A DNA stretch of 64,000 bases, taken from Thermoplasmatota archaeon. Its GTDB lineage: Archaea > Thermoplasmatota > E2 > JACPAO01 > JAHFTW01. The stretch covers positions 40,774 through 104,773 of the forward strand of contig JBFIHX010000005.1 in NCBI GenBank assembly GCA_041601615.1, read 5' to 3'. Shown here in pieces: positions 28,901-60,044 of this stretch (position 1 is the stretch's first letter; the number at the start of each line of letters is the position of its first letter). A model generated the notes under the pieces. The model was not told the DNA's origin and did no database searches. It saw only the letters and a program-made list of their open reading frames with translations. A program made the position numbers and the translations under genes.

Positions 28901-31045
28901 CTCGCCAGTGGCTTGTCCGAGCGTGGCCGTGGGGTCGTCGGCGCCGGGCGCTACTTTTTGGGTGGGGACTGCTGCGAGCCCGAGGGTGACGATGGCGATG
29001 TCGTCGAGTTCGTTGCCGTTCGTGTCGCGGGCTTTCGTGACGTCGGTTTCTCGCACTTGGACACGGAAGTGGGGGCCCGTGTGGTCGTCGACGAGTTCCA
29101 GGGCTTGCCCTTGTTCGTGCATGAACAGGCGCCATTGTTGTTCGGTGTTCAGGCTCCATTGCTCGGGTTGGGCATTGAGAGCGGCGACTACTTGGGGTCG
29201 GCCGACCACGACGTATTGCAAGAAGCCGGTGGCTTCGCCGAGCCAGGCGTCGTATGGCGAGAACTGGATCTGATCGCCTCGGGAAAAGACGCTTGGAAGG
29301 GGAGCCGGCGCTAGGTCGTCGGAGTCTAGGTAGCCAACGCCGCGGGTCCAGGGAGCGCTCTCCATGGGTTCGGCTCGCAGCGCTAAGACACCCATCAATT
29401 CCTGGGCGTGCCAGGGGCGGGAGGCGGTGTGTACGGATTGGCGCAGGGTCGCAAACGCCTGGGCCACGCGCAGGGAGGCGCCCATGCTGTTGTCCATCAT
29501 CGTGGCGGAGCGGTCCATGGAGGGGGCGCCCGTGACGGAAATAGCGCCGGCGGCGTCGGTGTAGTCGCTGTCGAAGGGGGACGGGGAGGCCACGAAGTCG
29601 ATGCCGGTGCCGTGGATGGCGGCGCGGCGTGAGGGGCCCAGGCAGCTATCGATGTTGGTTCCGGCGCGGTCTCCTGCGGCCACAGTGACCACACCAGGAA
29701 TGTCGTTGATGCCCACCATGGTCATGAATTGGCCGGGGATGGTGGCGCATTCGTCGGCTGGGGCGATGAAAGCGACTCCGGCGTCTCCGAGGTTGCGCAC
29801 CGCCTTTTGCAGGTCTTCATCGAATGCGAGGTCGGCCAGATACGATTCGACTAGGGCTCGCAATCCAGGGGAAAGTGAGTCTTTCTTGGCCTTCAGAACA
29901 TCAGCAAGATCCTTTTCATTGGTGCCGCCGAATTGGAATCCGGTGCGCCAGACTTCCTCCAGAACACTAGTGACTCCGAGTTGCGCAAGTTCGTCTTGGT
30001 TCTGCCAGGTGTTGGAGCTACGCGGGTCGCCTCGGGCGTCCAGCATCGGGGTGTCGGCAAAATGGAACGCGGGTCGCAGACTGTTTTGGACATTGGCCGG
30101 CAGGTGGATGCTGCTGGGGAGTCCCCAGATTGCAACTTGGACGCCGTTTTGGAAGGCGCTTTTTGCGCTCAATTCGGCGTAGTCGAGGCCATTGCGGATG
30201 GCGTCCCGCTCCAGGGCTCCGGTTTGTTGGTCGATGGCGCCCACGAATAGGACTTGGAATCCGGCCTCGGAGAGGCTCTTGGCCAAGGCGTGTCCTACGA
30301 ATGTCAGCGGTTCGCCGAGGGCGGTTTTGTCGCCGCGGGATGCGAGGAACGTGCCGAATCCGCTCTTGTAATGGGGTAGGTAGGGAAGGGATTCTGGGTT
30401 GGCTAGCGTGATGCCGGCAAGGTCGTCTTCGTCCAGGAAATCACCGAACAACAGCACAATGGGTCGATCCTGCACGGCGCCGGCAAGGTGCTCTAGGGTG
30501 TCTACGGCTGCGTCGACGGGCGCGCCTTGATCCCGGGTCGAGGCGGTGGGGATCCATTCGAAACCAGTGGGGTTCCAGGTACGCTCATCCACTTCCTGTT
30601 GAACCTGCGCAAGCGAGGGAGCTTCGACCCACAGGGGGGTCATGGCGCGGTCCGAGGAGCCGTCGTTCCAATGCACTTCCAGAGCGAGGTAGTGAAGGCC
30701 CGGTGGCGTCGCGGTCCATGCAGCAACTTGCCCGCCGGGAATAGCTTCGCCGTCCACCGTCCAAGCCAGGGAACTGACGGAGTCGGCGGGGGATGGGTTG
30801 GCGCGAGCCGAAAAAACGGTCCCTTCTAGCCCCCAGCTTCGATCCACCGTAAATCGAGCCACATGCGGATCGCTTGCCACGTCTGACGCGGAAGGGGCCA
30901 GGTATGGAGCGTCGGCGCGGGATCCGGGCTCTGCCCCGGGCGCTTGCGCGATGGTCACCGTGGCGAACATGGGTAACACCATGGTCAAAACCAGCATGAT
31001 CGCAAGATTGGTTGCGGCACTCGTTCGGGGGGCGTTGTACTTCAT
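16907..31045 (-). CDS. Giant extracellular protein (about 4,712 aa) with a right-handed parallel beta-helix, many Ig/Big-like repeats and a C-terminal LamG/concanavalin-like region
   Basis: Uninterrupted 14.1-kb ORF. Signal peptide at ATG 31045 (MKYNAPRTSAATNLAIMLVLTMVLPMFATVTIAQA). Beta-helix repeats (...VRVRHCAFADQTLGILATGSDVRIHNTLFDRMLRSAAILHDSHGLVRDNTV...). No obvious C-terminal TM or PGF-CTERM anchor. Confidence 0.85.
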   Translation of the reverse strand: MKYNAPRTSAATNLAIMLVLTMVLPMFATVTIAQAPGAEPGSRADAPYLAPSASDVASDPHVARFTVDRSWGLEGTVFSARANPSPADSVSSLAWTVDGEAIPGGQVAAWTATPPGLHYLALEVHWNDGSSDRAMTPLWVEAPSLAQVQQEVDERTWNPTGFEWIPTASTRDQGAPVDAAVDTLEHLAGAVQDRPIVLLFGDFLDEDDLAGITLANPESLPYLPHYKSGFGTFLASRGDKTALGEPLTFVGHALAKSLSEAGFQVLFVGAIDQQTGALERDAIRNGLDYAELSAKSAFQNGVQVAIWGLPSSIHLPANVQNSLRPAFHFADTPMLDARGDPRSSNTWQNQDELAQLGVTSVLEEVWRTGFQFGGTNEKDLADVLKAKKDSLSPGLRALVESYLADLAFDEDLQKAVRNLGDAGVAFIAPADECATIPGQFMTMVGINDIPGVVTVAAGDRAGTNIDSCLGPSRRAAIHGTGIDFVASPSPFDSDYTDAAGAISVTGAPSMDRSATMMDNSMGASLRVAQAFATLRQSVHTASRPWHAQELMGVLALRAEPMESAPWTRGVGYLDSDDLAPAPLPSVFSRGDQIQFSPYDAWLGEATGFLQYVVVGRPQVVAALNAQPEQWSLNTEQQWRLFMHEQGQALELVDDHTGPHFRVQVRETDVTKARDTNGNELDDIAIVTLGLAAVPTQKVAPGADDPTATLGQATGESNPPSPWLLPGMYAGDITISTPNAASLRLPLSISVGTALDVHRFVAPDTPVPGTAVCLATPLNLKDLHEVRSTMMEINDHNVCAHWADTDAAGIARFHASLPLSYDIVPFFSPYFEEKTKDVSTPDASVSGGATNTMGPRAYPQRPDSIALTAPRGDLWQLAIETPSVDWQELLTTGVNVDPSEYQEIPLPMFQIDPNNLRLPEVSYPLPLVDPRLPSQDTSETPELLPTYPLVYYGIERSYPLATAVHWRYLDNMEGDHFASIPASITPSTVASLHQLPNPLYGLYGTPIPGLDGGLQTASPDRLPLALGTAQDTLKGSTGNDPPTALFARPGQTALPMRTGPAADSCDLGAGHGASASTVRNLLYSGNSAAHIDALLAAGTTDGIPDQLVLRMEPSNAAVLGLQPTLPACSKMYTFNVPQPNEETVMTHEFDAHLEAAILVVCIEVTEAECRIIVPTSDGDGVYILEKKPTDLPRDVSDRMFEDRNSTPVATSGTTIPGLSDPALGDTVSLSRSGHVLMQSRQRSHDRDHGFITYTIIPFGLTSSGFLDPLLAHLASIDALSDIRFDGSSSIGQASALDLVREAAEDQMLPLAYAQLDRPALALDAWGYRDSFVHEPLADSQDLPRVDASDANLAGERWAAADAYLAPIHPNVDRARFARGIAYWDTETQTPDVDAMSSAGYAWIQPEFFEANVQVWDDDKILDTAPGRLEVRSADGAMLVASEACARDLPSNALRCLDVLEEGTGWTSKADGSGAYDPNLGSTIIRPRDTGFVDGTASGWQADWAKHLATPLFATATNYATAVAANPAVDANALEWFAPATVRVDRSYLSDMHQDTSFLLGTHHRTCEERHSDSQVPWNLESTPRWMTTCPWTSTGSNRWDQEIGTADTANDNLLWGSNNGGWTTLETGTNVTWTRDGVRCQTAPWETFTASTTASQRIAAIEAYYAARGATVHNVSAFQDPLPTGTNCGDTNGWHYQLEATMDFHGPRQALWNDMGRTVHPLWHPGTFAVDLDNWIACKGGRPVNGAACNTNHPIEQAWSALAGTNHATTYQDETGTHALVVDGKALAMTVFGLGKGTPMTYKLDGTTHTLTTRDDRLQHVATVPVDYDPDSWFSSSGTHSEFEAFYRTQWMSGADDAELLEALRDVVALFAKNVRDHLEANPYWTNVAGQKVPHPAAAADSFRFDAGDLSALGHMGHEGRSVGAKDAAITSSQIYGRWNPDHLVRDETGTVQTTKTTTADGETCWIDPSTDHDTAPHLEREISHTLPWNGGPAGTLHNETRNGATGATPPTRVGLWCTNEYGQTVPARTERETLPMRLADTPRSNTPITPFLASRSITPAAPGLGLQGFDVRPLIEQTLLEIAGAADSIPRTDLNPVPVTAIKITPLNSSSQETPLGASPILPLAHIEIDADLALAGLVLAHEYDLPTGTHAQFMAQQGTGPWQPLAARAAPGFAGDSEGSRLAFLDVTHLAPQFQLATQLVGDDWANATWNIHRIMPTPVTSNGDPIRVAAYQGDLSTAPFLSDLTLTQLEFHTGPILLDQDLVIPAGDERTFTGVDFVASDCGGRTCTLQVQGILHLINATLAPAAGLNGFPVHVTGTLQGTGVRAQGLAAGIEVRGGTLDLADCWIVRPGHLGILAAHATVRVRHCAFADQTLGILATGSDVRIHNTLFDRMLRSAAILHDSHGLVRDNTVTEARQSGFSVTGLSGASDMLLWNNRITDTAVGIALEAVEDRIQTPNPFTPTTPAAARDRVQENTINAATTIRTGTFANPTQGNNTLLAALTAPGTSGGQTQALSHNGTPWQPTDIAALAATIAADGMIPASDVDLAAPADANVRLDIHTAATVQQVRLQGTFYNTSVDLPEATTLDALITALQALNTTDRTGLLGTPGRIATVEVQNPNGEATHNFQFTTGTESRVLWTVTHVDTGSGWQEAPAEQTKAASIHNTLQWPLVTQYAYLVRDLTFDTLDDLLVTAQNRSAATLHPGNLAGLPHTLLPDGTLAVHGNTSLIALGTDLEPGIRYEFATRTSTGQIDNQGLSSERLVKLPDVPEGVTIHIQGRAVDPTGTTGPWTGSRILVDRTRPVLELNAGCLSGSDAGIYYRSYDPRGNWGTDPAYRASGIAELQVLATGAISNQTYPLLNPTFNDQQNLWTLPPEAYVDGESYSIQGHIIDHAGHAAIASIQNVVVDTSGPRLLGLGSTEGLLPDPNSTTPSYLGTKDLAPDGSLQVQFLVDDRPIDAERTHNCGIEEATLEYRVSGAGIWRPLDHQSPTIGTATTVLTGTINSTVVQSVLGRHLEFRVWAKDRAGHQTENTTGRIIVDTEAPLPLNIHAGDFLCLGPNNNQPIEWGAKDWKPSGSASAYEPSGIKQARLIMVHLNRTMEVLATIHHTANELNLESHQFDALTRDQIAKTFLVVDAQDRAGNGMQYTPAYLQGLGATHFEALRQASYKIHFDNDAPQIRVNSNFNYGVGLWENYPNTHIPLPTNGQLPNKDLAFLYDLVEPAETCFVDQFRIHISDEGNYNQLANHTQNINDWSHAMQVKVPLLPSLVGNITAHIQVWDQANNTATKTVNLGDPDPNPPLLSPTLGPQGVCYRSGYGQFGYAMSDNQSPHYLNLREREQGLGGIWSLAQNNTIVDWSGDFPRIAAFHTPSGASRDVFYALRGADTAGNIATTNNSWGRASIDADAPELEWLQPTTTGFFDPTNGLQAQWQATDAALLHCNGVVSGSIHLTSPLGTTTAWNGSLSDTGLGAQAPPGEPFTLSHAELATYEGMPITFNGTVVDHAGWSTEQTIGPFIPDDTAPVIDPLPTLPLYTGPNGFLLAWTPIDPIPGPGRAASGIASSHAIASNGDPIFGGQTQAESGQPLMPPTTRSGATVNVSVQAIDNVTHETTYNLGSVQTDFDVPGYELIPKTTICSGPQTGPINVTYSGWDTGSGLDDLRLLRVLSNLAVEPVHSTTEPHYAPEWSENATIDPWQWGEDIYLLLVDGYDMVQNGEHWTQVQLQNMPEEERNILLSGATLVVVDRRHPLGNPLPGLDGFFREVGNNIQAMGEAIGYRPIIAAGQLVSGGCEAITFELFLQTTDGSDTEPIQTQSGNQTLTIHETIHLNDTKYTRFHGQEVQLVLHGQDGAGHTWTNHSSAFVIDLVAPAIQDPPSLPALIGAAGINQTWTALDDQGAVDTGITWNAIELRPDANSTPLITAGPGTLLDIPAELENQALQAYVRVLDGAANELEIYLGQVEGDRTAPLLDANSINYESGTVGIDYTLAERNPSHILVQRTSTSGTSNETWTHASRYEDTTPPTNELATYTLCPVDQAGNPGTCQVLEIFVNAELPSIGLLSPSFAGTTRLGSGDLGLPVSGHVASVSTPGTTIWSSETDPGVFTLALEITPPHPDATMDIQATSRLGPISFTSVGSNRYEATIDLDEDQQEEVTLLVTANNGRSTAWRHSFHFAKDGIQPQVAQMQPQGNAHNYYNGYGPDGTSQKLGYTYGGSLHTPLAAHSALLTVTQWSNPGTNPGSTEFLALEGDEGDIAHLRYASNTLTLTVGNQSIAIGNITLKSQWYRFDLIAADGRMEAFLDETYLGSLPLSGPIRLESTRVQSASAMWTAPKVSLLDSDLRNLLEDQPILGGDGWQPIGQGTLQDTNTLGTAGGPTYLSIQPDSGHTLAAKSPPVDLPSSSHLTFRIKAKPAIEDPVFTVRNDDGDMMVRARVRYSTLEVEEGNGNWTILSSVDSRWHRFDIFIRHGHALIQRDQLSSVWVPLHADGPAATVEAGGGANTVDIDRLRIDMDTSRHDHTFVQPLTAFGWSETGSGLKTYAGSGFLGNGYLQVTGATSPGGRTYASFPTTGLGSKYTVEAAFAIGDSLNKPEHQAILSGLKSDDAPRWAVTLGPSQEIDCDAGDWRVHLYNGNTRISEGGVCLKNEKEWHFVRVEVTSTSVAVTLDDDTNSTFTSSITTGSDKRIGVGDVFPSPDAGRSGRGVGWYDDVVAFKRQ

Positions 31046-31140
31046 GGGGACACCGGCCAAGAAACGCCCACCGGGGGCCCGACGCCGCGCATGCGCGATG
31101 GTCGAGACCAGAAGGCTACCGCAACATCCGGGGATGCTAC

Positions 31141-34962: not shown

Positions 34963-35715
34963 ATGAGCGACTTGATGCGGTTCCGGGAACACAAGGCGCC
35001 CACGGTCAAGAACCCGGTCTTCGTCGAAGGCCTCCCGGGTGTCGGCAACGTCGGAAAACTCGCCGCCCAACACCTCGTGGACGCCCTCGGCGCCACCCTC
35101 TGGTTCGACATCTTCAGCCACGACTTCCCACCCCAGGTCACCATCGAACCCAATGGCACCGTCCGCTTGGTACGCAACCAAGTCTGGGTCGCCCCCAGCA
35201 AAAAAGGCGACCTCGTTCTCCTGACCGGCGACTACCAGCCGCTGAGCAGCGCCGGACAATTCGCCCTCGTCGAAGGCGTACTGGACCTCATCGAGCCACT
35301 TGGCTGCAAGAGCATGTACACCCTCGGCGGCTTCGGCCTCGGCACCTCCATTGACGACCCCGGCGTCCTAGGTGCTGCCACGGACGAAGCCATGGTCGAT
35401 GAACTCACCAGCCACGGCGTCACCTTCCAAGACGACGAACCCACCGGCGGCATCATCGGCGCCAGCGGCCTATTTCTAGGCCTCGGCATGGAACGCGGCA
35501 TGCGAGGCGCCTGCCTCATGGGCGAAACCAGCGGCTACATGGTCGACCCCGCCGCCGCCCGCGCCGTGCTGCGCGTGCTCGGAAAGATCCTGGGCCGGGA
35601 AATTGATATGACCGACCTTGAAGAAAAGGCGTCCGAAATTGACCGGATTACGCAGCAGTTGCACGACGCAGAGGTCGCGGCGAGAGAGCCGGGCGATTTG
35701 CATTATATTGGGTAG
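34963..35715 (+). CDS. PAC2-family proteasome assembly chaperone
   Basis: MSDLMRFREHKAPTVKNPVFVEGLPGVGNVGKLAAQHLVD... matches the archaeal PAC2/PbaA family and the conserved aIF2a-nop10-PAC2 synteny. Confidence 0.7.
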   Translation: MSDLMRFREHKAPTVKNPVFVEGLPGVGNVGKLAAQHLVDALGATLWFDIFSHDFPPQVTIEPNGTVRLVRNQVWVAPSKKGDLVLLTGDYQPLSSAGQFALVEGVLDLIEPLGCKSMYTLGGFGLGTSIDDPGVLGAATDEAMVDELTSHGVTFQDDEPTGGIIGASGLFLGLGMERGMRGACLMGETSGYMVDPAAARAVLRVLGKILGREIDMTDLEEKASEIDRITQQLHDAEVAAREPGDLHYIG

Positions 35716-35851
35716 GTGGATTGGCTTTGCCGGGGGTGTTGGGGTTGGGTGGGATAATAACTTGTTAGTCCGCCCGTAGGATTTCTTCGGCAGCGAATGG
35801 TGTGGCTGCAAACTCCCGCTGCATGCAGATCCCAGAAAATGGCCAGCAAAA

Positions 35852-36415
35852 GTGAAAACCTCCAGGGCCAATACAAACCTTGAGTGCAACGGAATGGACG
35901 CCATCTTACAAGCGATTGACGAAGCCCTGGCATCAAAAAATTGGCATGCCGCGCTCTTCATGTCCCTTTCCGCCCCAGATGTTTGCGCTTCGCTATGCTC
36001 CGAAACCGGCAAGAGCAACCGAACCATGTATGCCGACTGGTTCAACGAATACGTCGGCAAACGCTACAAGAGGCAGGCTTCGGCGTTTATGGAAGAACAC
36101 ACGTTTCTCTCTGGCAACGACTGCTACGCGCTTCGGTGTACTGCATTGCATCGAGGGGACGTAGATATCAGCGATGAACGCTGTCGTGAAGCGCTTGACT
36201 CGTTCCACTTCACAACGACTGGATCGCACTGCAACCAAGTCGAGGGGGTACTCCAACTCGATGTTCGGACGTTTTGCCAGGACATTTGTGCAGGCGTCCG
36301 CGAATGGGAGTCGCGATGGATTTGCAACGATTCCCAGCATGAGTCGAAGAAGGCGCAGCTGCTTACGATCCACACTGGACCCAGCACCGTCGGCGGAATG
36401 GTGCGTTTTGGCTAG
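35852..36415 (+). CDS. Hypothetical Cys-rich protein in a lower-GC islet
   Basis: 187-aa ORF with no recognised motif. Local GC is visibly lower than its surroundings. Confidence 0.4.
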   Translation: MKTSRANTNLECNGMDAILQAIDEALASKNWHAALFMSLSAPDVCASLCSETGKSNRTMYADWFNEYVGKRYKRQASAFMEEHTFLSGNDCYALRCTALHRGDVDISDERCREALDSFHFTTTGSHCNQVEGVLQLDVRTFCQDICAGVREWESRWICNDSQHESKKAQLLTIHTGPSTVGGMVRFG

Positions 36416-36506
36416 CGGCCTAAGAGGTCACTCAACCCGACCTCTCCCTTCGATCGTGGCGGCTTACCTCAACCGTTAGGCAGTGGTGGAGTTGCGCTCC
36501 CCGCCG

Positions 36507-36863
36507 TTACGAAATGTATGAAATTACGAGCTTGCGAGCCCGTTGTCGGATGTCTCGGTGCACCTTGCCTTGCTTCTTCGTAATCCAGTGGTGCTTCATG
36601 GTCACGACGGTTTCGGTGTCGATGTGCGACTTCTTCCTCATTGACCCTTGATCCCAATGCGTGGGCTTGACCTCGACGAATGCCGCACCCGTTCCGGACC
36701 CACTTGTCATGGCACAGCAAAGATACTGTTCACCGTGCCCCGGGTATGCGTCATTGCTCAAGATGAGCCACGGTCGTTGGCCGCCAGTCACGAGTTCAGG
36801 ATCGTCGTCATGGTACGCGTCAGGGCCCCAAACGACGTCCCCCACGGAATACGGCGCAGACAT
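36507..36863 (-). CDS. PemK/MazF-like toxin (type II TA)
   Basis: VGDVVWGPDA...GQRPWLILSND...CCAMTSGSG...SHIDTETVVTMK follows the MazF/PemK spacing pattern (GD[IV]W...RP.L[IV].S...TS......T[IV]). Confidence 0.5.
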   Translation of the reverse strand: MSAPYSVGDVVWGPDAYHDDDPELVTGGQRPWLILSNDAYPGHGEQYLCCAMTSGSGTGAAFVEVKPTHWDQGSMRKKSHIDTETVVTMKHHWITKKQGKVHRDIRQRARKLVISYIS

Positions 36864-37187
36864 CTAGAACCAATCGTCCGGGTTTTCAGGGCCAAGGCGC
36901 TTGTTTAGGTCCAGTGTCGTTGCATGAATCATGGCTAGTTTTGCACCTTCCAGCTCGGCAGGTTGGAACCAGTAGACCCCCTGCTTGTCCAAGAGCCCGC
37001 GTTGCAGCAGTCGGCGAAGAACCGCTCCGAGAGTGTGGATTTCAATTCCGAGTGCATCCGCGATTTCAACGGAGCGCCAAGCTTCACCGGGTGTTGCGCG
37101 AATGAAGCTCATCACGCGCGTGGGATTTGAGTCGCCTGTGTCGCTGGCACGAGCGCCTTTGAGGAGGGTTGCTACCGCCATGGACAT
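36864..37187 (-). CDS. Putative antitoxin / winged-helix DNA-binding protein upstream of the toxin
   Basis: 107 aa, wHTH-like (WRSVEIADALGIEIHTLGAVLRRLLQRGLLDKQGVYWF). Stop abuts the toxin start (36864/36863). Confidence 0.4.
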   Translation of the reverse strand: MSMAVATLLKGARASDTGDSNPTRVMSFIRATPGEAWRSVEIADALGIEIHTLGAVLRRLLQRGLLDKQGVYWFQPAELEGAKLAMIHATTLDLNKRLGPENPDDWF

Positions 37188-37204
37188 ACTGACTCATATG
37201 TTAG

Positions 37205-37450
37205 TCATCTAGGATAAGCCTGCCGCGGGGTGCGACGAAACTACCCCCATCCTACAAATCGCTCAAGCCGACCACACGCTGCGCATATGGCGGCCTTTCT
37301 CAGTACTTCGACGCCCTCGCCCTCGGCCGCAACAAGGCCGACGTGAGTCGCGACGTTTCTCTGCTGGAACGCCTCGGGCTCGTGAAGACCACTCGCCGCG
37401 GCAACCAAAAATCAATCCAAGCCGCCGTCCACGCCATCGAAATTGTCTGA
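37205..37450 (+). pseudogene. Start-less C-terminal fragment of an ArsR/wHTH-type regulator
   Basis: Open frame ...YFDALALGRNKADVSRDVSLLERLGLVKTTRRGNQKSIQAAVHAIEIV* has no ATG and is preceded by an in-frame TAG. Confidence 0.3.
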
Positions 37451-37496
37451 GCGTCATCCGACCATAACCCCTTCAACCCAGCCTGCCCTCGAACCA

Positions 37497-39149
37497 ATGA
37501 TGCCGGCCATGGAGCAGTTGCCCCGCCGCTCCCGTCTTGCGCGCTTCAATGAGATTGTCAACATTCTCGTCGAAAACGACTTCTGGGGCTTGCTCCAGTC
37601 GCTCTTGAAGGGCCAGGACACGGCTCGCCCCGGCGATGACCCGGCGCCTCGCAAGCTGCGCATCATCTTCGAGCGCCTGGGGCCGACCTTCGTCAAGCTC
37701 GGGCAGCTTCTGGCGACCCGGCCGGACCTGGTGCCACAGAGCTACGCGGAGGAATTCAAGCAACTGTACGACGGAACCAAACCGAGTCCGTTTGCCAAGA
37801 TCCGCGAAGTGGTTCGGGACGAACTGGGCAAGGATCTGGAACAAGTGTTTTCGAGCTTTGATCCGGAAGCCCTCGCCAGCGCCAGCGTCGGACAAGTCCA
37901 CAAGGCGGTGCTCCTGGACGGCACGCCCGTCGCGGTGAAAGTGCAGCACCCCGGCATCGAGACGAGGATGATTCTGGACTTCCAAATCCTGCGCGGCCTC
38001 GTGACCTTCATCGAGAAGACCTTTGCCGCCAGCCGCATTTGGCAACCGACGCAGCACCTTGAGGAGCTGCAACAGATGCTGGAGCGGGAGCTGGACTACC
38101 GCTACGAAATGAAGAACACGCTCCGCGTCGCACAGAATTTCGAAAATGACAACACCGTCCGCATCCCCCGCATGTTCCCGGACCACTCCTCCAAGCGCGT
38201 CTTGGTCATGGAGTTCATGGACGGCCACAAATTTGCCAACGTCGAAGACCTAGACGGCAACGGCATCGACCGCAAGGCCGTGGCCCGCGTCATCACGCAC
38301 GCCATGGCCAAGCAAATCTTCGTCCACCGCGTATTCCACGCCGACCCCAGCCCCGGCAACATGATGGTACTCGCCTCCAACCAAGTCGCATTCTTGGACT
38401 TCGGCGCCGTGGGCGTCGTCACGGAACGCCGCGCCAAGAACATCCTGCGGCTCATCACCGCCATCAGCAAAGGCGACACGGAAGCCAGCGGCGAGGCCGT
38501 CATCGACCTATGCGACCAGTACGGCGAGCACGATCCCAAACGGTTCCAAGTGGACACCGAGAAGCTTCTGGACTTCTTTGAGCGCGAAGAAGTAAGTGTG
38601 GCAGACCCCCGGCTCATGGAGATGATCATGGGCCTTGCCAAGAAGCACAAAATGCTCCTGCCGCCCGACTTCATGCTCATCACCCGGGCCTTGTTCCAAT
38701 TCGATGGCTTCTGCCGCGAACTCGACCCCGACTACGAACTCGTCACGGTCCTCGAACCACTCGTTGGCGAACTCGTTTGGAAGAACCTCACAAGTGCGCG
38801 CAAACAAAAAGAAATCATGGAGGAGACCATCGGGGAGCTCCTGAAATTTGGGCGCCAACTGCCCCACACCCTCAACCAACTCGTGCGCCGCATCGATCGC
38901 AACGAAATACGCACAACCATCGACGTGGCAGGCCTCGAAGGCATCAAACAAAGCCAGGGTCGCTCCGCGCTCAAAATGAGCTTCACCATCGTCGTCGCCG
39001 CGCTCATCATTGGCCTCGGCATCGTCTACACCGGCCCCGACCCCGACAGCCGCGTGCTGCAATTCTTGTTCGGCGCCAGTGGCATCGTCGTCCTATGGGC
39101 CTTCGTGCTCCTCATGTGGTCCGAGATGATGAAAGGCAACCGAGAATAG
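37497..39149 (+). CDS. UbiB/ABC1-family atypical protein kinase
   Basis: RLGPTFVKLGQLLATRPDLVP...ASVGQVHKAVLLDGTPVAVKVQHPGIE, with a C-terminal TM helix. TTG at 37443 and ATG at 37497 are both in frame. Confidence 0.75.
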   Translation: MMPAMEQLPRRSRLARFNEIVNILVENDFWGLLQSLLKGQDTARPGDDPAPRKLRIIFERLGPTFVKLGQLLATRPDLVPQSYAEEFKQLYDGTKPSPFAKIREVVRDELGKDLEQVFSSFDPEALASASVGQVHKAVLLDGTPVAVKVQHPGIETRMILDFQILRGLVTFIEKTFAASRIWQPTQHLEELQQMLERELDYRYEMKNTLRVAQNFENDNTVRIPRMFPDHSSKRVLVMEFMDGHKFANVEDLDGNGIDRKAVARVITHAMAKQIFVHRVFHADPSPGNMMVLASNQVAFLDFGAVGVVTERRAKNILRLITAISKGDTEASGEAVIDLCDQYGEHDPKRFQVDTEKLLDFFEREEVSVADPRLMEMIMGLAKKHKMLLPPDFMLITRALFQFDGFCRELDPDYELVTVLEPLVGELVWKNLTSARKQKEIMEETIGELLKFGRQLPHTLNQLVRRIDRNEIRTTIDVAGLEGIKQSQGRSALKMSFTIVVAALIIGLGIVYTGPDPDSRVLQFLFGASGIVVLWAFVLLMWSEMMKGNRE

Positions 39150-39210
39150 GTCACAGCGTCAGCAAAACCAGAAGGGACCTTTTTTCTTCTCGTGCAATGA
39201 ATCCTAGGGC

Positions 39211-39726
39211 ATGAGCAAGACCCTCCCAATCCTCGTCTTCGTGGCCGCCATCCTCGCCGCAATGACCGCGATCGTCGTCTCCGGCACCATCATCGCCATC
39301 GTTCCCCTCGTCGGCATCGCCGCAGCCGTCTTTCTGCTCATGCTGCGCCACCGCGCCGGATACGTCGCTGGCGGCCTCCTGCTCATTGCCTGCCTCGTCG
39401 CGCTCTCCATGAGCATCGGGGACGTCAATTTCAAAGGCAACGGCGCCGACACCGACGTAGAAACCGGACAAGCCATGGCCATCGCCGCCTCCGTGTTTGC
39501 CAGTACCGCCCTCATGGGCATCGCCTGGACCCGCCTCGAACCCGTCTGGATGCCCTACATCTGGCTCGTCGTCAACCTCGTAGCCCTCGGCCTCACATTT
39601 GGCCTCGGCGGCGACTACGGCAACCCCGTCGACGGCGGCAACTACGCCACCGCCTTCTTCGTCGTCCTCGCAGCCGTCCCCGGCTTGATCATCGCCATCC
39701 GAGGCGAACCGGACCTCAGTGCCTAA
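39211..39726 (+). CDS. Polytopic small membrane protein, hypothetical
   Basis: 171 aa with four or five hydrophobic helices. Confidence 0.45.
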   Translation: MSKTLPILVFVAAILAAMTAIVVSGTIIAIVPLVGIAAAVFLLMLRHRAGYVAGGLLLIACLVALSMSIGDVNFKGNGADTDVETGQAMAIAASVFASTALMGIAWTRLEPVWMPYIWLVVNLVALGLTFGLGGDYGNPVDGGNYATAFFVVLAAVPGLIIAIRGEPDLSA

Positions 39727-39801
39727 CCACGCATTCCGCCCCCGCAAGACAGCCCGCATCTGGGAAAACACGGAACTAGGCAAAGCCGCCCTTCCACGCA
39801 C

Positions 39802-40305
39802 ATGCATCGAAAACGTGTCCTCGGCATCAGCATCGCTGCGGCCGTCGCGGTTGCTGCAGGAGTCGCTTTTTTTGCCGTGCCCTTGTTTCTGCCCGAAAAA
39901 ACCACACAACTGGACCAAGGCTTGCCACCGGGCATGACCTACGGGGCAGCCACGGAGCATGCACGAGGCGGAACCCTGCGCGGCGAGGACGGCCACCGAG
40001 CAAGCGGGACGGTTCAACTCTTGGATGTGGATGGCGCCTGGTACCTACGCTTCGAAGACCTCGACATGACCGCCGGGCCCGACATCTACCTCTACCTCAT
40101 CGAATCCGAAGGCAGCAGCCGCAACGAAATCGAGGCCGGCGTCCGCGTTCCCGTCGTCACCGAAGAAGACCGCAGCGCCCGCATCAACGAACGCGGCACC
40201 TTCAACGTCCAACTCCCCGACGACGTAGACCCGCAACAATACAACGGCATCAGTGTCTGGTGCGACCGCTTCGGCGTCCCCTTTGCCACCGCGCCTCTTG
40301 CCTAA
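39802..40305 (+). CDS. DM13-domain protein (membrane-anchored)
   Basis: N-terminal TM, then GTVQLLDVDGAWYLRFEDLDMTAGPDIYLYL...GISVWCDRFGVPFATAPL, typical of the DM13 domain. Confidence 0.55.
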   Translation: MHRKRVLGISIAAAVAVAAGVAFFAVPLFLPEKTTQLDQGLPPGMTYGAATEHARGGTLRGEDGHRASGTVQLLDVDGAWYLRFEDLDMTAGPDIYLYLIESEGSSRNEIEAGVRVPVVTEEDRSARINERGTFNVQLPDDVDPQQYNGISVWCDRFGVPFATAPLA

Positions 40306-40361
40306 CCCCCTCCGTCTCCGGCCCCCGCGCCCTTTTCAAGCCCGCCCCAGTCGCGCCCGTG

Positions 40362-41711
40362 ATGACGCTGCGAACGCTCGGCTGCGGAGAAGTCCAACCC
40401 GCGCACTACGGCACCGAACAGACCTTCGCTGGCTGGGTCCACACCCTACGCGCCAAGGGCAACATCGCCTTTTTGGAACTGCGCGACCAAACCGGCACCG
40501 TCCAGTTCGTGCTCCTGAAGAAAATGCTCGCCGAGAGCGCCCCCGGCCTCTTTGAAACCCTCACCGACGCCAGCGCCGAGAGTGCCGTGAGCATTACCGG
40601 CCTCGTCAAAGAATCAGACAAAGCCAAAGCCGGCTTCGAAGTTCTGCCCACCGCCGGCACCGTCCTCAACAAAGCCCAGACCCCGCTTCCCATGGCACTT
40701 TGGGACGAAGAAATCCACACCGGCCTCGACACCCGCCTCGACAACCGGTTCCTGGACCTGCGCGGCCCCCGCAGCGCCGCCATCTTCCGCATCCGCAGCG
40801 AAGTGCTGCGCGCCGGCCGTGAATACTTCCAGAGTCAAGGCTTCACCGAGATCACCACCAGCAACATCATCGCCGCAAGCAGCGAAGGCGGCACGGACAC
40901 CTACAAAGTGGACTGGTTTGGCAAGGAATGCTTCCTTTCGCAGTCGCCGCAACTCTACAAGCAAATGATGATGGCCAGCGGCCTCGACCGCGTCTACGAG
41001 ATCGCCCGCTACTTCCGCGCTGAAAAGCACAACACCGTGCGCCACCTCAACGAAAGCACCGCCTTCGACCTGGAACTCGCCTGGATTGAGTCGGAAGAAG
41101 ACGTGATGAAGATCATCGAAGGCCTCCTGCACCACATCTGGAAGGCCGTCGTCGAAAACTGCCCCCAGCACCTTGAAGCCCTCGGCGCCGATGTCCCCGT
41201 TCCCGCCCTGCCCTTCATGCGCGTCGCCTACGAAGACGCCCTCGCCATCATCAACGTCCGCGCCGGCGACCGCCTCCACGCGCCGCTTGCATTCGGCGAC
41301 GACATCGGCACCGAAGCCGAAAAAATCCTCGGCGAAGCGATGCGCGAAGACGGCCACGACTTCTACTTCATCACCAAGTGGCCCCTTGCCCCCAAACCGT
41401 TCTACGTCATGCCCGAGGACGGCACCCAAAACAGCCGACTCTCGCGCAGCTTCGACCTGGACTACCGAGGCGTGGAGCTCATCAGCGGCGCTCAACGCAT
41501 CCACGACCCCGAGTTGTTGGAACAAGGGATTGTGCGCTGGGGCCTGGATCCCAAAGACTTCGGGGATTACCTGGAGTCGTTCAAGTACGGCATGCCGCCG
41601 CACGGTGGATGTGGGATCGGCATCGAGCGGATTCTGATGCAGATGCTGGGCCTCAGCAACATACGCGAAGCCATTCTCTTCCCCCGCGACTTAGACCGCG
41701 TGACGCCGTAG
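40362..41711 (+). CDS. aspS: Aspartyl-tRNA synthetase, archaeal type
   Basis: N-terminal anticodon-binding OB fold and class II motifs (FRAEKHNT..., GGCGIGIERILM). Confidence 0.9.
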   Translation: MTLRTLGCGEVQPAHYGTEQTFAGWVHTLRAKGNIAFLELRDQTGTVQFVLLKKMLAESAPGLFETLTDASAESAVSITGLVKESDKAKAGFEVLPTAGTVLNKAQTPLPMALWDEEIHTGLDTRLDNRFLDLRGPRSAAIFRIRSEVLRAGREYFQSQGFTEITTSNIIAASSEGGTDTYKVDWFGKECFLSQSPQLYKQMMMASGLDRVYEIARYFRAEKHNTVRHLNESTAFDLELAWIESEEDVMKIIEGLLHHIWKAVVENCPQHLEALGADVPVPALPFMRVAYEDALAIINVRAGDRLHAPLAFGDDIGTEAEKILGEAMREDGHDFYFITKWPLAPKPFYVMPEDGTQNSRLSRSFDLDYRGVELISGAQRIHDPELLEQGIVRWGLDPKDFGDYLESFKYGMPPHGGCGIGIERILMQMLGLSNIREAILFPRDLDRVTP

Positions 41712-41794
41712 GCGTTGCGCGGTTTGCGGGGAAGGAAGGCTGAGCGGTTGCTGAGGGCCGGGAGCGAGTCGGCGGCGAAGCCGACGGCTGGCGA

Positions 41795-41860
41795 CTCGGG
41801 TTGCCGAATATACGCGAGGCGATCCTGTTTCCGAGGGATTTGGATCGGGTTACGCCGTAG
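41795..41860 (+). repeat. Echo copy of the last 22 codons of aspS (encodes LGLPNIREAILFPRDLDRVTP*), diverged almost only at synonymous third positions
   Basis: Real end is ctgggcctcagcaacatacgcgaagccattctcttcccccgcgacttagaccgcgtgacgccgtag (41646-41711). Echo is ctcgggttgccgaatatacgcgaggcgatcctgtttccgagggatttggatcgggttacgccgtag. 17 of 22 codons differ, with a single amino-acid change (S to P). Confidence 0.6.
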
Positions 41861-42016
41861 GGTACGAGGTTTCACTTCCGCCAGCGAGGTCGGGTGGGCG
41901 TGGAAGGGTTACCTGTTCAGAGTTTCTAATCTGGATGCCGAATCTTAATCAGATTCGCCCTGCGATTGCTGCATGACCTTGCCCTTGAACCAGGTCCCGA
42001 ACTGCTCGGTTCGTCG

Positions 42017-42508
42017 TTACCTAGGCATAATTGCATCGAGGGCATCGCAGAGCCGTTTCCGGTCTGCGTGCGCTTCGCCTCCAAGCTCAGTGCCCTTGAG
42101 CGTGTTTTCTCGTGCCTTTTTTAGAGTACCATCTCGCAGATTGTTGACGGCCTTCTCGAAAGCCTTCGTGTCAATGGTTTCTGCCTGAAGGTTCCCCTGA
42201 GCGTTGCGCAGCCGAGAATAAGCTGTCTCAATGAGGCTCATGTCCTGGTAAAATTCATTATTTTCATGATATCCACGTAGTGACAGGAAATGGGTAACTT
42301 CAACGGCTGCAGTCCTTGCATCCGCAATGATGTCGCGAAGTCGCTGTTTTTGGGTCCGCCGACCTTCTAAATGGAAAGTGAGCCAGCCACCACCCAAGGC
42401 CAGGAAGGCACCTAAGACAACATTAAATGGTTGAGAAGTAAGAAGTTCCCCAAGATTCACACCACTCCCATCATTTATAGATATATAGAATACTGCATCG
42501 CCCTTCAA
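42017..42508 (-). CDS. Hypothetical protein in a lower-GC patch
   Basis: 163-aa ORF with an internal hydrophobic segment. The AT-rich stretch 42200-42500 contrasts with its flanks. Confidence 0.4.
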   Translation of the reverse strand: MKGDAVFYISINDGSGVNLGELLTSQPFNVVLGAFLALGGGWLTFHLEGRRTQKQRLRDIIADARTAAVEVTHFLSLRGYHENNEFYQDMSLIETAYSRLRNAQGNLQAETIDTKAFEKAVNNLRDGTLKKARENTLKGTELGGEAHADRKRLCDALDAIMPR

Positions 42509-43719
42509 TCAGAAGCCCTTAATTCCTGCTGCCCCGCGCTCAACTGATAGATGCTCCCCCCATGCCCCACCACATACAACCGCCCCTCCCCATCCACCCC
42601 AAAACTCGAAATCCTCGCCTCCACCCGCCCAATGACCCGCGTTTCCCCGCTCAAACGGTCATGACTCCAAATGGTCCCTGAACAGTAGTCGCCAAACACG
42701 TACGTCCCTCGCAAAACACCCGCATCGGTATGATTCCAGACGTGTCCGCCGGTCACGGAGCAGTGCCCGCCGTCGTGGTCGTACTCTGCGACCGGGGGAA
42801 CGTGTCCGGGGGCGTCGCCGTCGCGGTATTTTTGGCTGCCCTCGTAGGTGACCCAGCCGAAGTTGAAGCCGCTGGCGCCGGGGGGTGCGTAGTCGATCTC
42901 TTCGGCGTGGTCCTGGCCTACATCTCCAATCCAGAGGCCGCCGTCGGCGTCGAAGCTGAAGCGCCAGGGGTTGCGCAGGCCGTAGTGCAGTATCCGGGGG
43001 TCTCCACCGCCGTTGAGGAATGGATTGCCGGGAGCACCCGTGGCGGGGCCGGTGCCGGATACGTCGAGCCGCAGGATGCTTCCAAGGATGGTGTGGGTGT
43101 CCTGGCCGTTGCCATGGGGGTCGGCTGCGAGGCCGCCGTCGCCGAGGCCGAGGTAGAGGAAGTCGTCGGGGCCAAACAGCACCGCGCCGCCGTTGTGGTT
43201 CGGGTAGGGTTGGTTCTGGGTGAGGAGGATTTCTTCGCGGCTTGGGTCCGGGAGGCCGTTGGTGCCGGGGGCCATCCGACTGAGCACGGTATCGCCGTCT
43301 AGGGCCGAGTAGTGAACGTATGCGGTGCCGTCGTCTGCCACCGCGAGTCCCAGGAGTCCGCGCTCGCCGCCTCCTCGCACGCGGTCGGTGATGTCGAGCC
43401 AGATCGTCCGCTCGTCGCCGCTATCGAGTCGCCAAACCTTGCCGGCTTGTTCGACCACGAGGAGGCTGCCGTTGTGGTGCGTCACAAGCGTCGGGCTCGA
43501 AAATCCCTCGGCGACGGGCACAAGTTCCAGGGTGACGTTCTCGGCGGCGGCGTAGGCGGGCACGTCGTCTCGGAACCAGCCGGTAAACAGGGTCGCGTAG
43601 ACCGCAAACAGCACCAGAACCAGCACTGCAGACCCTCCCGCAAGGTACCACTGCCAGCGCTTCACGAGGCAGGATCGGGCGCGGCGACTTGATGGTTGGC
43701 CTGACGGACGCGCAACCAA
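42505..43719 (-). CDS. PQQ-dependent (soluble-quinoprotein-type) sugar/sorbosone dehydrogenase, membrane-anchored
   Basis: Beta-propeller SGDH-family motifs (HNGGAVLFGPDDFLYLGLGDGG...GLRNPWRFSFD...WIGDVGQDHAEEID). N-terminal TM anchor. Confidence 0.65.
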   Translation of the reverse strand: MVARPSGQPSSRRARSCLVKRWQWYLAGGSAVLVLVLFAVYATLFTGWFRDDVPAYAAAENVTLELVPVAEGFSSPTLVTHHNGSLLVVEQAGKVWRLDSGDERTIWLDITDRVRGGGERGLLGLAVADDGTAYVHYSALDGDTVLSRMAPGTNGLPDPSREEILLTQNQPYPNHNGGAVLFGPDDFLYLGLGDGGLAADPHGNGQDTHTILGSILRLDVSGTGPATGAPGNPFLNGGGDPRILHYGLRNPWRFSFDADGGLWIGDVGQDHAEEIDYAPPGASGFNFGWVTYEGSQKYRDGDAPGHVPPVAEYDHDGGHCSVTGGHVWNHTDAGVLRGTYVFGDYCSGTIWSHDRLSGETRVIGRVEARISSFGVDGEGRLYVVGHGGSIYQLSAGQQELRASD

Positions 43720-51151: not shown

Positions 51152-51161
51152 GCTGAATCAA

Positions 51162-51492
51162 AAAGGGTCAATCGTTCGGGCCGGGTCGCGCCTAGCCCGG
51201 ACGACCTGTGGCGTTAGAACCAGCTGCTTAGGTCTCGTTGGACTGCGATTTCCAGCGATTCAGAACGACCCCCAAAGGGGTCGATCGTTTGGGCCGGTTC
51301 GCGCCATGCGCGACCGACCTGTGGCGTTAGAACCAGCTGCTTAGGTCTCGTTGGACTGCGAGTTCCAGCGATTCAGAACGACCCCCAAAGGGGTCGATCG
51401 TTTGGGCCGGTTCGCGCTCTGCGCGACCGACCTGTGGCGTTAGAACCAGCTGCTTAGGTCTCGTTGGACTGCGAGTTCCAGCGAATCGAAGC
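51162..51492. repeat. Three tandem 113-bp units; the distal unit is the authentic polB 3' end (last 18 codons plus flank), so the polB 3' terminus is tandemly triplicated
   Basis: ttagaaccagctgcttaggtctcgttggactgcga(g/t)ttccagcga(a/t)t recurs at 51214, 51327 and 51440. Copies differ by a few SNPs, and each contains short GC-rich palindromes. Fills the whole regulator-polB intergenic space. Confidence 0.85.
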
Positions 51493-59475: not shown

Positions 59476-59859
59476 ATGGACATCCCAATGGCCGGTGCTC
59501 CCGCCGCCGCCCCGACTGCCAACTTCGCCCTCACGCCCGAGCAAAAGCAGGAGTGGGACGACCTCATCGCCAGCAACGACCTCGTGTTGTTCATGAAGGG
59601 CACCCCGGACGCGCCCCAGTGTGGCTTCAGTGCCCGCGCCGCCGGCGTGCTGCAGCACCTGGAGCGCCCCTTTGCGCACGTGAACATGTTCGCGCAGCCG
59701 GACCCGCGACAAGCCATCCAAGCCATTGCCGAGTGGTCCCAATTCCCGACCCTTCCGCAGGTCTACGTCAAGGGTGAACTCATCGGCGGCAGCGACATTG
59801 CGTTGGAGATGTTGGAAAGCGGCGAACTGAGTGAGATGCTGGGCGAAGCCCAGGATTGA
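59476..59859 (+). CDS. Monothiol glutaredoxin (CGFS type, Grx4/GrxD-like)
   Basis: CGFS active site (GTPDAPQCGFSARAAGVL) and a conserved C-terminal helix. Confidence 0.8.
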   Translation: MDIPMAGAPAAAPTANFALTPEQKQEWDDLIASNDLVLFMKGTPDAPQCGFSARAAGVLQHLERPFAHVNMFAQPDPRQAIQAIAEWSQFPTLPQVYVKGELIGGSDIALEMLESGELSEMLGEAQD

Positions 59860-60044
59860 GCGAGGGAGCCGCTTTCTTTGCTGCTGTGCCGCCAGGTGCA
59901 GCACGCTGGAGAGTGGCGAACTGGAGGATGTGTTGGGCGAAGCCCAGGATTGAGCGAGGAAGCCGCTTTCTTTGCTGCTGTGCCGCCAGGTGCAGCACGC
60001 TGGAGAGTGGCGAGCTGGAGGATGTGCTGGGCGAAGCCAGCTAA
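59860..60044 (+). repeat. Two tandem copies of about 94 and 91 bp, each ending with an echo of the grx 3' end (LESGELEDVLGEAQD* and LESGELEDVLGEAS*)
   Basis: The gene end ...ttggaaagcggcgaactgagtgagatgctgggcgaagcccaggattga recurs as ...ctggagagtggcga(a/g)ctggaggatgtg(t/c)tgggcgaagcc(caggattga/agctaa) at the end of each unit. Confidence 0.8.

Follow-up and report, generated by a model that had tools for sequence, protein, structure and literature searches.

An orphan copy of the aspS 3′ end behind its gene in a Thermoplasmatota archaeon, a possible scar of 3′-end displacement

Introduction

Integrative elements that enter gene 3′ ends reportedly leave gene-fragment repeats, attL and attR, behind them, a description said to go back to work by Williams in 2002 and 2003. 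Repeats of this kind are left in the 3′ ends of tRNA, tmRNA and protein genes (PMC6563490). A different process, C-terminal (3′-end) displacement, operates at Rhs, CDI and T6SS effector loci and has been proposed to proceed via homology-facilitated illegitimate recombination (HFIR) (PMC5361080). According to the Rhs work of Jackson et al. (2009), as cited in PMC5361080, strings of orphaned 3′ regions are left at such loci. HFIR has been demonstrated experimentally in naturally transformable bacteria (de Vries and Wackernagel 2002; Prudhomme et al. 2002; Meier and Wackernagel 2003, as these are cited in PMC5361080), and it is reported to occur rarely in comparison with ordinary homologous recombination (PMC5361080).

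Here we analysed a short second copy of the aspS 3′ end, hereafter the echo, in a 64-kb stretch of DNA from a Thermoplasmatota archaeon (the window). As with attL/attR repeats, a partial 3′-end copy lies downstream of an intact gene, on the same strand, at a locus that is an insertion hotspot. The architecture of the locus, its neighbourhood and the corresponding loci of relatives suggest a history closer to the displacement of gene ends.

Results

The aspS gene (40362-41711, plus strand) encodes an archaeal-type aspartate--tRNA(Asn) ligase of 449 aa when read from the GTG at 40362, with an ATG at 40365. Its product contains the Pfam domain tRNA-synt_2 (E = 2e-88) and an anticodon-binding OB fold, is identical to database protein P0001 and has orthologues in Thermoplasmatota MAGs. 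The last 21 codons and the TAG stop of the functional gene occupy 41646-41711 (plus strand), and the echo, an untranslatable copy of these 21 codons and TAG, occupies 41795-41860 on the same strand. The encoded peptides are LGLSNIREAILFPRDLDRVTP for the real end and LGLPNIREAILFPRDLDRVTP for the echo, each followed by the stop, and six-frame translation of the 64 kb returned matches to the terminal peptide at these two places only. The two copies are identical at 45 of 66 nucleotides and differ in 17 of 22 codons, with a single amino-acid change, just as the initial annotation had described. That annotation placed the copy 84 nt downstream; the non-coding spacer measures 83 nt (41712-41794, plus strand), with nothing resembling an element body in it, as had also been noted. 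Both copies are present in an independent Logan assembly of run SRR29257386 (L082), which is 100% identical to window positions 36990-42978.

The 21 nucleotide differences between the real end and the echo were distributed 3/1/17 over codon positions 1/2/3 (probability of at least 17 of 21 at third positions, given an expectation of 1/3, 1e-5). A dN/dS comparison of the two 66-nt segments, suggested in the initial annotation, yielded an NG86 dN of 0.095 and a dS that was saturated and not computable. Since the differences were almost all synonymous, the two copies must, judging from their codons, derive from two different functional, diverged aspS alleles united by recombination. The codon-position spectrum, together with the lack of flank similarity, excluded in-place neutral decay of a tandem duplicate and bore out the earlier proposal that one copy is a displaced or alternative end. 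Homology between the copies ended sharply on both sides, with no match upstream of codon -22, and the spacer did not significantly resemble the sequence behind the echo (p = 0.37), so the arrangement is not a plain tandem duplication. Third positions were C-rich in the real end, as in the remaining gene, and G/T-rich in the echo. Both copies shared the 10-nt end ACGCCGTAGG, which has dyad symmetry, and the 8-nt ATACGCGA, identities that the conserved peptide and the stop codon also impose; a third copy of this att-like core was not found in the window.

The starts of the real end and of the echo are 149 nt apart, which places the echo out of frame with aspS. In its own frame a TGA lies 18 codons upstream (41741-41743) and no start codon is present, indicating that the echo does not sit inside a longer conserved ORF, a situation that would have counted against the reading in the initial annotation. 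Readthrough, frameshifting and an alternative C-terminus were likewise rejected, given the frame, the upstream stop and the mixture of echo frames across lineages.

Synonymous divergence along aspS revealed a mosaic gene. Against the sister L001, divergence rose from 0.25 to 0.50 at a change-point at codon 383 (max-chi-square, permutation p = 0.001), and against L002 the change-point fell at codon 355 (p = 0.004). In codons 376-426 every relative was 0.45-0.51 away from the window sequence, and those relatives differed by 0.18-0.27 among themselves (Fisher p = 3e-4). With the breakpoint near codon 383 and the window as the outlier, the data point to an import anchored inside the gene and upstream of the echo boundary. 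The imported 3′ tract runs from about codon 383 to the stop (41511-41711, plus strand; the left limit is approximate). At about 65 codons it is three times as long as the echo, and some 43 codons separate its breakpoint from the echo boundary farther downstream. A second, smaller bump of divergence covered codons 290-340; aspS may therefore hold several tracts, and the 3′ tract and the echo need not share one event.

The echo was nearest to the aspS end of the sister L001, from which it differed at 10 nucleotides, all synonymous, with an identical peptide and the shared rare codons TTG/AGG/TTG/GAT. The end attached to the gene was nearest to that of L009, an otherwise more distant relative. 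Third positions differed between the echo and L001 at 10 of 21 sites, against about 0.25 expected for a vertically inherited copy (p = 0.02), so the echo is a putative resident end. The 3′ end of L001 itself also looks exchanged, with an L001-L002 distance of 0.18 there versus 0.33 in the gene body. Both the tract and the echo stand near saturation from each of the 37 sampled relatives; none came closer than about 0.33-0.43 in third-position difference, and no donor emerged for the one or the other. A search for a decayed echo in L001 gave an alignment score inside the shuffle range, and the spacer resembled neither the aspS flank of any relative nor anything else.

Two hairpins accompany the copies. 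The stop-codon hairpin (41694-41724, plus strand) has the 5′ arm gaccgcgtgacgcc, the 3′ arm ggcgttgcgcggtt and a GTA loop made of the last base of a Pro codon and the TA of the stop. All 14 of its 14 positions pair when G-U is allowed, and the non-Watson-Crick positions are transitions, which preserve the pairing only in the sense-strand RNA. The 3′ arm is formed by the first 13 nt of the spacer and is co-adapted to the gene end, which suggests that both arrived jointly. The second hairpin, GTCGGC-GGCGAA-GCCGAC (41768-41785, plus strand), ends 9 nt before the echo. A near-identical stem, at 10942-10958, stands just before a further echo, that of the ribosomal protein S7 gene; the window has two sites of this kind in all (0.09 expected). 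The AGTCGGC..GCCGAC hairpin occurs just twice in the window, relatives carry other hairpins and the spacer is unmatched, for which reasons a dispersed REP/MITE family was discarded. An integron attC-like site was also set aside: by eye, GTTACGC is unlike GTTRRRY, no IntI was found, and cassette boundaries carry about 6 nt of the neighbour, not 66. A search of Rfam with 41500-42100 gave no match.

Downstream of the echo, a block of lower GC content (41861-42508; 0.35-0.6 versus about 0.63 in the flanks) extends to a gene for a GSDH-family dehydrogenase (Pfam GSDH; 42505-43719, minus strand). The latter is the conserved convergent right neighbour that bounds a variable slot: relatives commonly have aspS and, convergent to it, GSDH in this order, often with just 90-400 nt between them, and the junction is an insertion hotspot where relatives carry 1-7 kb of variable genes. 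The contigs of many assemblies break directly after aspS. Within the block lies an ORFan ORF of up to 163 aa (hyp163; 42017-42508, minus strand), of which Logan calls the last 74 codons only. The initial annotation considered this low-GC gene consistent with a nearly completely decayed integrated element. The ORF had no homologue in relatives, Pfam, PHROGs, PADLOC or a search of 5.8 billion proteins, and it sits outside the repeat pair and not between the copies. Its PADLOC comparison included a weak, insignificant match to Cas7b.

The Pfam search found no integrase, recombinase or transposase within 10 kb on either side in the window. In the equivalent variable slot, examined in about 20 relatives, none of 20 genes was an integrase or element gene, and ordinary cellular genes stood there. 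No IMG/VR viral contig carried a REAILFPRD-coding pattern, and the block 41712-42520 matched no phage or plasmid, in collections whose coverage of archaeal elements is limited. Hence elements with an aspS 3′ fragment beside an integrase, which the initial annotation had proposed to look for, were found neither in the window and 37 relatives nor in the viral, phage and plasmid collections.

Echoes of the aspS terminus recurred downstream of the gene and on the same strand in L002 (three), L004 (two), L008, L010, L015, L022, L023, L035, L065, L081 and L083. They thus affect at least 10 lineages and about 10 of 33 loci of the clade (about a third), and the opposite-strand and upstream controls gave no exact matches. 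Their lengths ranged from 15 to 66 nt and their frames were mixed (frame 0, six; frame 1, three; frame 2, four). In L023, three ordinary genes (4.2 kb) separate aspS from a partly decayed echo that matches the aspS end of the sister L020 at 26 of 29 positions and that of L023 itself at 23 of 29; it is followed by a desaturase gene common to L020, that is, by native downstream DNA. L015 combines an echo with an anomalous 3′-terminal aspS tract (p = 0.002). A metagenome scan for the terminal peptide returned one contig, L081, with a short echo of its own, and comparable echoes were present in MAGs from unrelated studies.

The structure was not confined to aspS. Echoes were detected at 16 of 658 other genes tested and at none of the controls, a share of about 2% for these archaeal assemblies; ABC1 is one of the genes concerned, and two more lie in the window, those for DNA polymerase B (PolB) and ribosomal protein S7. 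The S7 echo retains a matching flank (p = 0.008) yet differs only synonymously, and so shows part of the features of a tandem duplication. PolB carries stop-spanning tandem units (113 nt, 2.9 copies, 94% identity) that fit simple tandem duplication, and near-identical stop-spanning units also occur at aspS in L010 and L004 and at genes in L020, L028, L053 and L074. Echoes were associated with GC-rich hairpins, for which the hairpin energies of our automated procedure were usable; the echo lengths of the same procedure were not, as its extension step under-calls echoes that have diverged at third positions.

Discussion

The foreign aspS tract is longer than the echo, mobile-element genes are absent, and the same kind of structure turns up again at aspS in other lineages and at further genes, in association with hairpins. 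With moderate confidence, we interpret the echo as a recombination scar of 3′-end displacement and not as the remnant of an integrated mobile element. DNA of a diverged relative would have paired with the highly conserved aspS of the Thermoplasmatota archaeon, and a homologous crossover near codon 383 would have swapped the 3′ part of the gene for a foreign allele carrying its own stop-codon hairpin and a hairpin-bearing trailer of about 83 nt. The spacer would then have come together with the imported tract. Because the variable downstream region offered no homologous partner, the right end of the incoming DNA would have been attached by an illegitimate join, 22 codons short of the resident stop, either by HFIR or by an equivalent template-switch/SDSA repair aborting just past a hairpin. 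The resident last 22 codons would thereby have been expelled from the gene as an untranslated, out-of-frame fossil. The copies would differ almost only synonymously because each was under selection while it was a working gene end. We infer a single event, with the echo as the resident copy and an illegitimate right-hand join. As HFIR is reported to be rare, echoes at about 10 of 33 aspS loci would require a local hotspot, which we tentatively attribute to the hairpins.

Some of the same observations could be accommodated by other histories. A stop-spanning tandem duplication, arising by slippage or template switching at 3′ hairpins, might have been followed by a homologous recombination that replaced the functional upstream copy and left the older allele as the echo. 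We regard this two-step course as rather unlikely, although these genomes often carry near-identical tandem units (PolB here, aspS in L010 and L004), allelic recombination is evident in aspS, and S7 joins a matching flank to synonymous-only differences. At the window aspS the post-echo flank is unlike the spacer, a right crossover within the 83 nt would find little homologous flank in a donor whose synonymous divergence is saturated, and the co-adaptation of the attached end with its hairpin partner suggests joint arrival. Improbable, too, is an integrative element targeting the aspS 3′ end, whether of the tyrosine-integrase type or non-autonomous and mobilised in trans, with its body nearly all deleted or its att relics stacked; the initial annotation favoured such an origin, as an attP-borne replacement end or tandem att relics. 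The identical 10-nt end with dyad symmetry in both copies, the assemblies that break directly after aspS and the foreign-looking low-GC ORFan nearby would all suit it. Unlike attL/attR repeats, however, the copies here are 68% identical, have no long identical core and enclose nothing element-like, the ORFan lying outside them. An att crossover predicts a foreign tract of just the duplicated 22 codons, and the tract spans about 65; integrase, transposase and element genes were found neither in the window nor in the slot of any relative, and viral contigs, phages and plasmids gave no match. The repeats are also not confined to one target gene, and echo lengths of 15-66 nt vary between lineages. 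Echoes at genes as unrelated as S7, PolB and ABC1 are not plausibly all att sites, and the attP-type origin is not supported.

The reverse polarity deserves mention as well. The echo and the block 41861-42508 could be a fragment from a lower-GC donor inserted after the resident aspS, with the mosaic tract as a separate event. GC content does fall from the echo onward, the third positions of the echo are unusually G/T-rich for this genome, the ORFan block is missing from all relatives, and the echo is less close to L001 than a vertical copy should be. This insertion would nevertheless demand a coincidence, a fragment that starts inside the donor aspS and lands behind the recipient aspS without using that homology, and the L023 echo is clearly joined to native downstream DNA; since the echo peptide in addition equals that of the sister exactly, we consider it distinctly improbable. 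An assembly artefact, by collapse or concatenation of two strain haplotypes, would be conceivable in a metagenome-assembled genome, where strain variation at this junction is likely and contigs break. Two assemblies nevertheless agree base for base, the spacer-echo junction has no k-mer in common with aspS that could make a graph loop, and MAGs from unrelated studies contain comparable echoes. A functional element, such as a regulatory RNA or an alternative end that is translated, fits poorly with an echo that is out of frame and lacks a start codon, with the mixed frames across lineages, with the lack of an Rfam match and with conservation at the codon level and not at the nucleotide or structure level. 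Artefact and function together seem to us very improbable.

Taken as a displacement scar, the echo adds no new mobile element or function. It would document, as a clean and datable trace, that diverged lineages recombined within an essential gene of an uncultured archaeon. The pattern seems under-described: short 3′-end fossils just downstream of genes, often with synonymous-only differences and often beside strong hairpins. If it holds in complete genomes, echo arrays could preserve a local record of past allele replacements and could mark recombination hotspots where flexible genomic islands have their borders. It also carries a warning, that a partial 3′-end gene copy alone is insufficient evidence for an att site. 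As a long shot, the echoes may be no accidental scars but traces of a so far undescribed process, guided by hairpins, that acts in Thermoplasmatota and certain other archaea and is based either on RNA-templated re-insertion of mRNA 3′ ends or on non-autonomous cassettes. Such a cassette could consist of a replacement gene end, the stop-codon hairpin, the trailer and a terminal hairpin, inserting into the 3′ ends of conserved genes with the help of an enzyme encoded elsewhere. A process of this kind would pile up one gene-end allele after another, in arrays that document how alleles have turned over.

Among known systems, diversity-generating retroelements (DGRs) pair a variable repeat (VR) with a template repeat (TR), show mismatches at template adenines and have a reverse transcriptase nearby. 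As in a VR/TR pair, the aspS 3′ end has a near-copy in non-coding DNA just downstream. Here, however, a housekeeping enzyme is affected, and the changes are synonymous and not diversifying; a DGR was rejected because the differing bases include all four nucleotides and no reverse transcriptase was found nearby (Pfam, neighbouring genes). The bacterial HFIR experiments offer a parallel, with a one-sided homologous anchor, an illegitimate join at the opposite side and the addition of short foreign segments; at aspS the process is read from the sequence of an uncultured archaeon. The closest analogues would be the 3′ regions that are orphaned at Rhs and T6SS loci. There, and likewise at CDI loci, the exchanged ends encode different toxins with immunity genes, an adaptive variation, whereas both aspS ends specify the same housekeeping-enzyme peptide, the displaced pieces are tiny (15-66 nt) and bear no sign of benefit, the hosts are archaeal and the joins cluster at hairpins. 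The likeness lies in the architecture: a conserved 5′ region would serve as the homologous anchor, the incoming DNA would bring a new 3′ end, the old end would be moved downstream as a same-strand orphan, and repeated events would build strings of orphans such as those in L002, L004 and L083.

A diverged second copy of the aspS end

The aspS gene (40362-41711, forward strand), which carries the Pfam tRNA-synt_2 domain and an anticodon OB fold, ended in LGLSNIREAILFPRDLDRVTP plus stop (41646-41711, +), the C-terminus of the functional gene. After a spacer of 83 nt (41712-41794), this end was copied as LGLPNIREAILFPRDLDRVTP plus stop (41795-41860, +), here called the echo. Six-frame translation of the window matched the terminal peptide at these two places only, and the Logan assembly of SRR29257386 was identical to the window over 36990-42978 with both copies included, confirming that the duplication noticed in the initial annotation is real. 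The near-synonymous divergence described there also held. Specifically, 45 of 66 nt were identical and 17 of 22 codons differed, with a single amino-acid change, and the 21 nucleotide differences were distributed 3/1/17 over codon positions 1/2/3 (p = 1e-5 versus an even spread), giving a dN of 0.095 and a saturated dS (NG86). We also looked at whether the echo lay inside a longer open reading frame. The two copies started 149 nt apart and were out of frame. In its own frame the echo lacked a start codon and was preceded, 18 codons upstream, by a TGA, which identified it as an orphan fragment.

Window aspS is mosaic

The third codon positions of the echo were G/T-rich (G 0.57, T 0.24, C 0.14); those of the attached end and of all neighbouring genes were C-rich (about 0.6). 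Together with the near-absence of changes at codon positions 1 and 2, this shows that the attached end and the echo derive from different functional alleles. The closest relatives of the gene were Thermoplasmatota MAGs (amino-acid identity of 95% for the sister lineage L001, 87% for L002 and 70-83% for the others). The fraction of synonymously differing codons relative to L001 rose from 0.25 to 0.50 at codon 383 (maximum chi-square, permutation p = 0.001), and the same method placed a break at codon 355 relative to L002 (p = 0.004). Over codons 376-426, upstream of the duplicated segment, window aspS was 0.45-0.51 from every relative while the relatives were mutually close (L001-L002 0.18, L002-L004 0.22, L001-L008 0.24; Fisher p = 3e-4 for the window as outlier), so window aspS is the recombinant, with a foreign tract that exceeds the echo in length. 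The nearest match of the echo was L001's own aspS end, which encoded the identical peptide, shared rare codons with the echo and differed from it by 10 synonymous changes; the attached end was nearest to L009, one of the more distant relatives over the rest of the gene. No convincing donor of either end was found among the sampled lineages. Since the echo was somewhat farther from L001 than expected of a vertical copy (p = 0.02), which of the two copies was resident is something that we infer.

The region downstream of aspS is variable

The common gene order in relatives was ABC1 kinase, small genes and aspS, with a convergent GSDH-family gene downstream, often no more than 90-400 nt away. In the window, this gap measured 794 nt; after the spacer and the echo came a block of lower GC, in which lay an ORF of up to 163 aa (42017-42508, reverse strand). 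This ORF had no homologue in the relatives, in Pfam, PHROGs or PADLOC, or among 5.8 billion proteins searched, and is perhaps a young gene or a spurious one. A TATA-like, AT-rich stretch lay ahead of an internal GTG (42460), and gene calling in the Logan assembly took in the last 74 codons only. In other lineages the slot between aspS and the GSDH-family gene held 1-7 kb of unrelated ordinary genes (epimerase/CPBP, NmrA, PKD, desaturase, nitroreductase, BrkB, UDG and a ligand-gated-channel-like protein), with no integrase among them. Within 10 kb on either side of window aspS we found core genes only: EF-2, eIF2-alpha, PAC2, MazF-like toxin, ABC1, DM13, MMPL, cytochrome oxidase subunits, an HTH regulator and PolB. 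A lower-GC stretch (35600-37200, about 0.53-0.57) contained the MazF/PemK-like gene (36507-36863, reverse strand), which adjoined a 107-aa ORF and likely forms with it a toxin-antitoxin pair located between PAC2 and ABC1. Elsewhere in the window, one reading frame stayed open for 4,717 codons (16907-31060, reverse strand), showed coding-like GC3 and presumably encodes a giant surface or adhesin-type protein, and a 94-nt tandem repeat (2.4 copies, 92% identity) occupied 59813-60038.

Gene-end echoes recur in other lineages and at other genes

Further analyses of relatives' loci revealed parallel aspS echoes, all downstream and all on the gene strand; in controls on the opposite strand and upstream, covering 1.2 Mb, the aspS terminus had no exact match (about 0.1 expected by chance). 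L023 carried a partly decayed echo 4.2 kb downstream of aspS, beyond three ordinary genes, that matched the aspS end of its sister L020 (26/29) better than its own (23/29) and was followed by a desaturase also found downstream of L020 aspS. L015 had an echo of about 60 nt and an aspS with an anomalous terminal tract (p = 0.002), and L010 had a near-identical 116-nt unit reaching the contig end. L002 showed three additional D-R-V-T-P-stop units (gat cgg gtg acc ccg taa, gac cga gtc acc ccg tag and gac cgc gtt acg ccg tag), every one accompanied by a complementary arm, L004 and L083 two or three units apiece, and L008, L022 and L081 a single short echo each, with synonymous differences. The pattern extended beyond the clade, as one exact echo of the terminal pentapeptide plus stop was present in L035, a distant Thermoplasmatales MAG (11396-11413), and in L065, from Altiarchaeales (12134-12151), with synonymous changes such as Arg AGG to CGT.

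In L002 (4904-5090), L083 (3098-3290) and L004 (11354-11480), aspS was followed by a tandem array in which a unit of about 55-65 nt occurred two to three times. Every unit began with a D/x-R-V-T-P-stop-like motif, the variation was mainly at third positions, and several units had a compensating hairpin arm of their own. Repeats of about 40 nt (roughly 2.5 copies) lay directly after the aspS stop in L007 (7144-7260). Many assemblies broke no more than a few dozen bases past aspS, in line with strain-variable or repeated sequence there. The contigs of seven independent assemblies (L001, L010, L013, L030, L089, L090 and L093) ended inside aspS or within about 20-310 nt after it, which suggests strain-level heterogeneity or repeats at the junction in natural populations.

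Of 658 genes in the window and the loci, 16 were followed on their own strand, at no more than 1 kb, by an exact echo of the terminal five codons and the stop; no gene had one on the opposite strand or upstream. These echoes were enriched at aspS (8/82 versus 8/576 other genes, p = 2e-4), which may in part reflect easier detection, because diverged echoes of the very conserved aspS C-terminus are simpler to spot. In the window, the last 10 codons plus stop (10858-10890, +) of the ribosomal protein S7 gene (10228-10890, +) were echoed 73 nt downstream (10964-10996, +) with five codons changed, all synonymously and including TAA to TAG, and the 11-mer ggcgtcttcga directly followed both copies. 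The family B DNA polymerase gene (51440-54406, reverse strand) ended inside a tandem unit of 113 nt (51161-51484, 2.9 copies, 94% identity) that contained its last 15 codons, the stop and a hairpin-bearing trailer, thereby producing two exact LSSWF-stop echoes.

Hairpins accompany the echoes

At the aspS stop, 41694-41707, which covers the final codons of the gene, paired with 41711-41724 around a GTA loop that holds the stop (14/14 positions with G-U allowed). Deviations from perfect complementarity were transitions that kept the pairing in the sense-strand RNA only, and the stem may serve in 3′ stabilisation or in termination. Comparable covarying stop stems were seen in L002, L004, L008 and L083 and were absent from some relatives. 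Among 37 clade sequences, stop-flanking pairing averaged 7.2/14 compared to 4.8-5.3 in shifted controls, and, where enough downstream sequence was available, echoes were present in all five loci with at least 10/14 paired and in 5 of 30 others (p = 8e-4). GC-rich hairpins adjoined many echo starts on the upstream side; 10 of 24 windows there fell under the 5th percentile of random 48-mers, a result that is indicative only as the control was mostly coding. The hairpin GTCGGC-GGCGAA-GCCGAC ended 9 nt ahead of the aspS echo, and one with a near-identical stem, GAGTCGGC-ACC-GCCGACTC (10942-10958), ended 4 nt ahead of the S7 echo. As AGTCGGC..GCCGAC, the hairpin occurred in the 64 kb at these two sites only (10942-10958 and 41767-41785; 0.09 expected), both immediately upstream of a diverged gene-end echo.

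A proposed displacement of gene 3′ ends

Decay of a duplicate in place was excluded, since it would alter all codon positions and here positions 1 and 2 were almost unchanged with third positions beyond saturation. The initial annotation had proposed that an integrative element supplied a diverged, attP-borne replacement end and then decayed or left tandem att relics. This is biologically reasonable in archaea (PMC6563490), and its premise of two functional alleles agrees with the codon evidence. However, the model failed four of its five testable features. The foreign tract exceeds the 22 duplicated codons that an att-type crossover would give, and its length is accounted for by homologous crossing-over within aspS. 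The relatives' slots lacked an integrase, and the window had only core genes around aspS. There was no match to phage, plasmid or viral contigs, nor to any Rfam family. The mechanism offered was only partly right.

The simplest account of the alleles, the mosaic, the parallels, the other genes and the hairpins is displacement of the gene 3′ end. Recombination would be anchored in the conserved gene and joined imprecisely on the side facing the variable region, a join that hairpins probably promote by causing stalling or cleavage, and the former gene end would stay behind, stranded. A close rival has two steps, in which a duplication arises first and one copy is then replaced by another allele; it probably applies to S7. 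Altogether, under 3′-end displacement the echo is a variant form of an already known type of recombination scar. It is notable chiefly because it recurs, because its differences have a codon-level signature and because it hints at a wider association of hairpins with gene ends in archaea. At Rhs and T6SS loci, the mechanism that we propose for the aspS echo has already been put forward for series of orphaned 3′ regions (PMC5361080).
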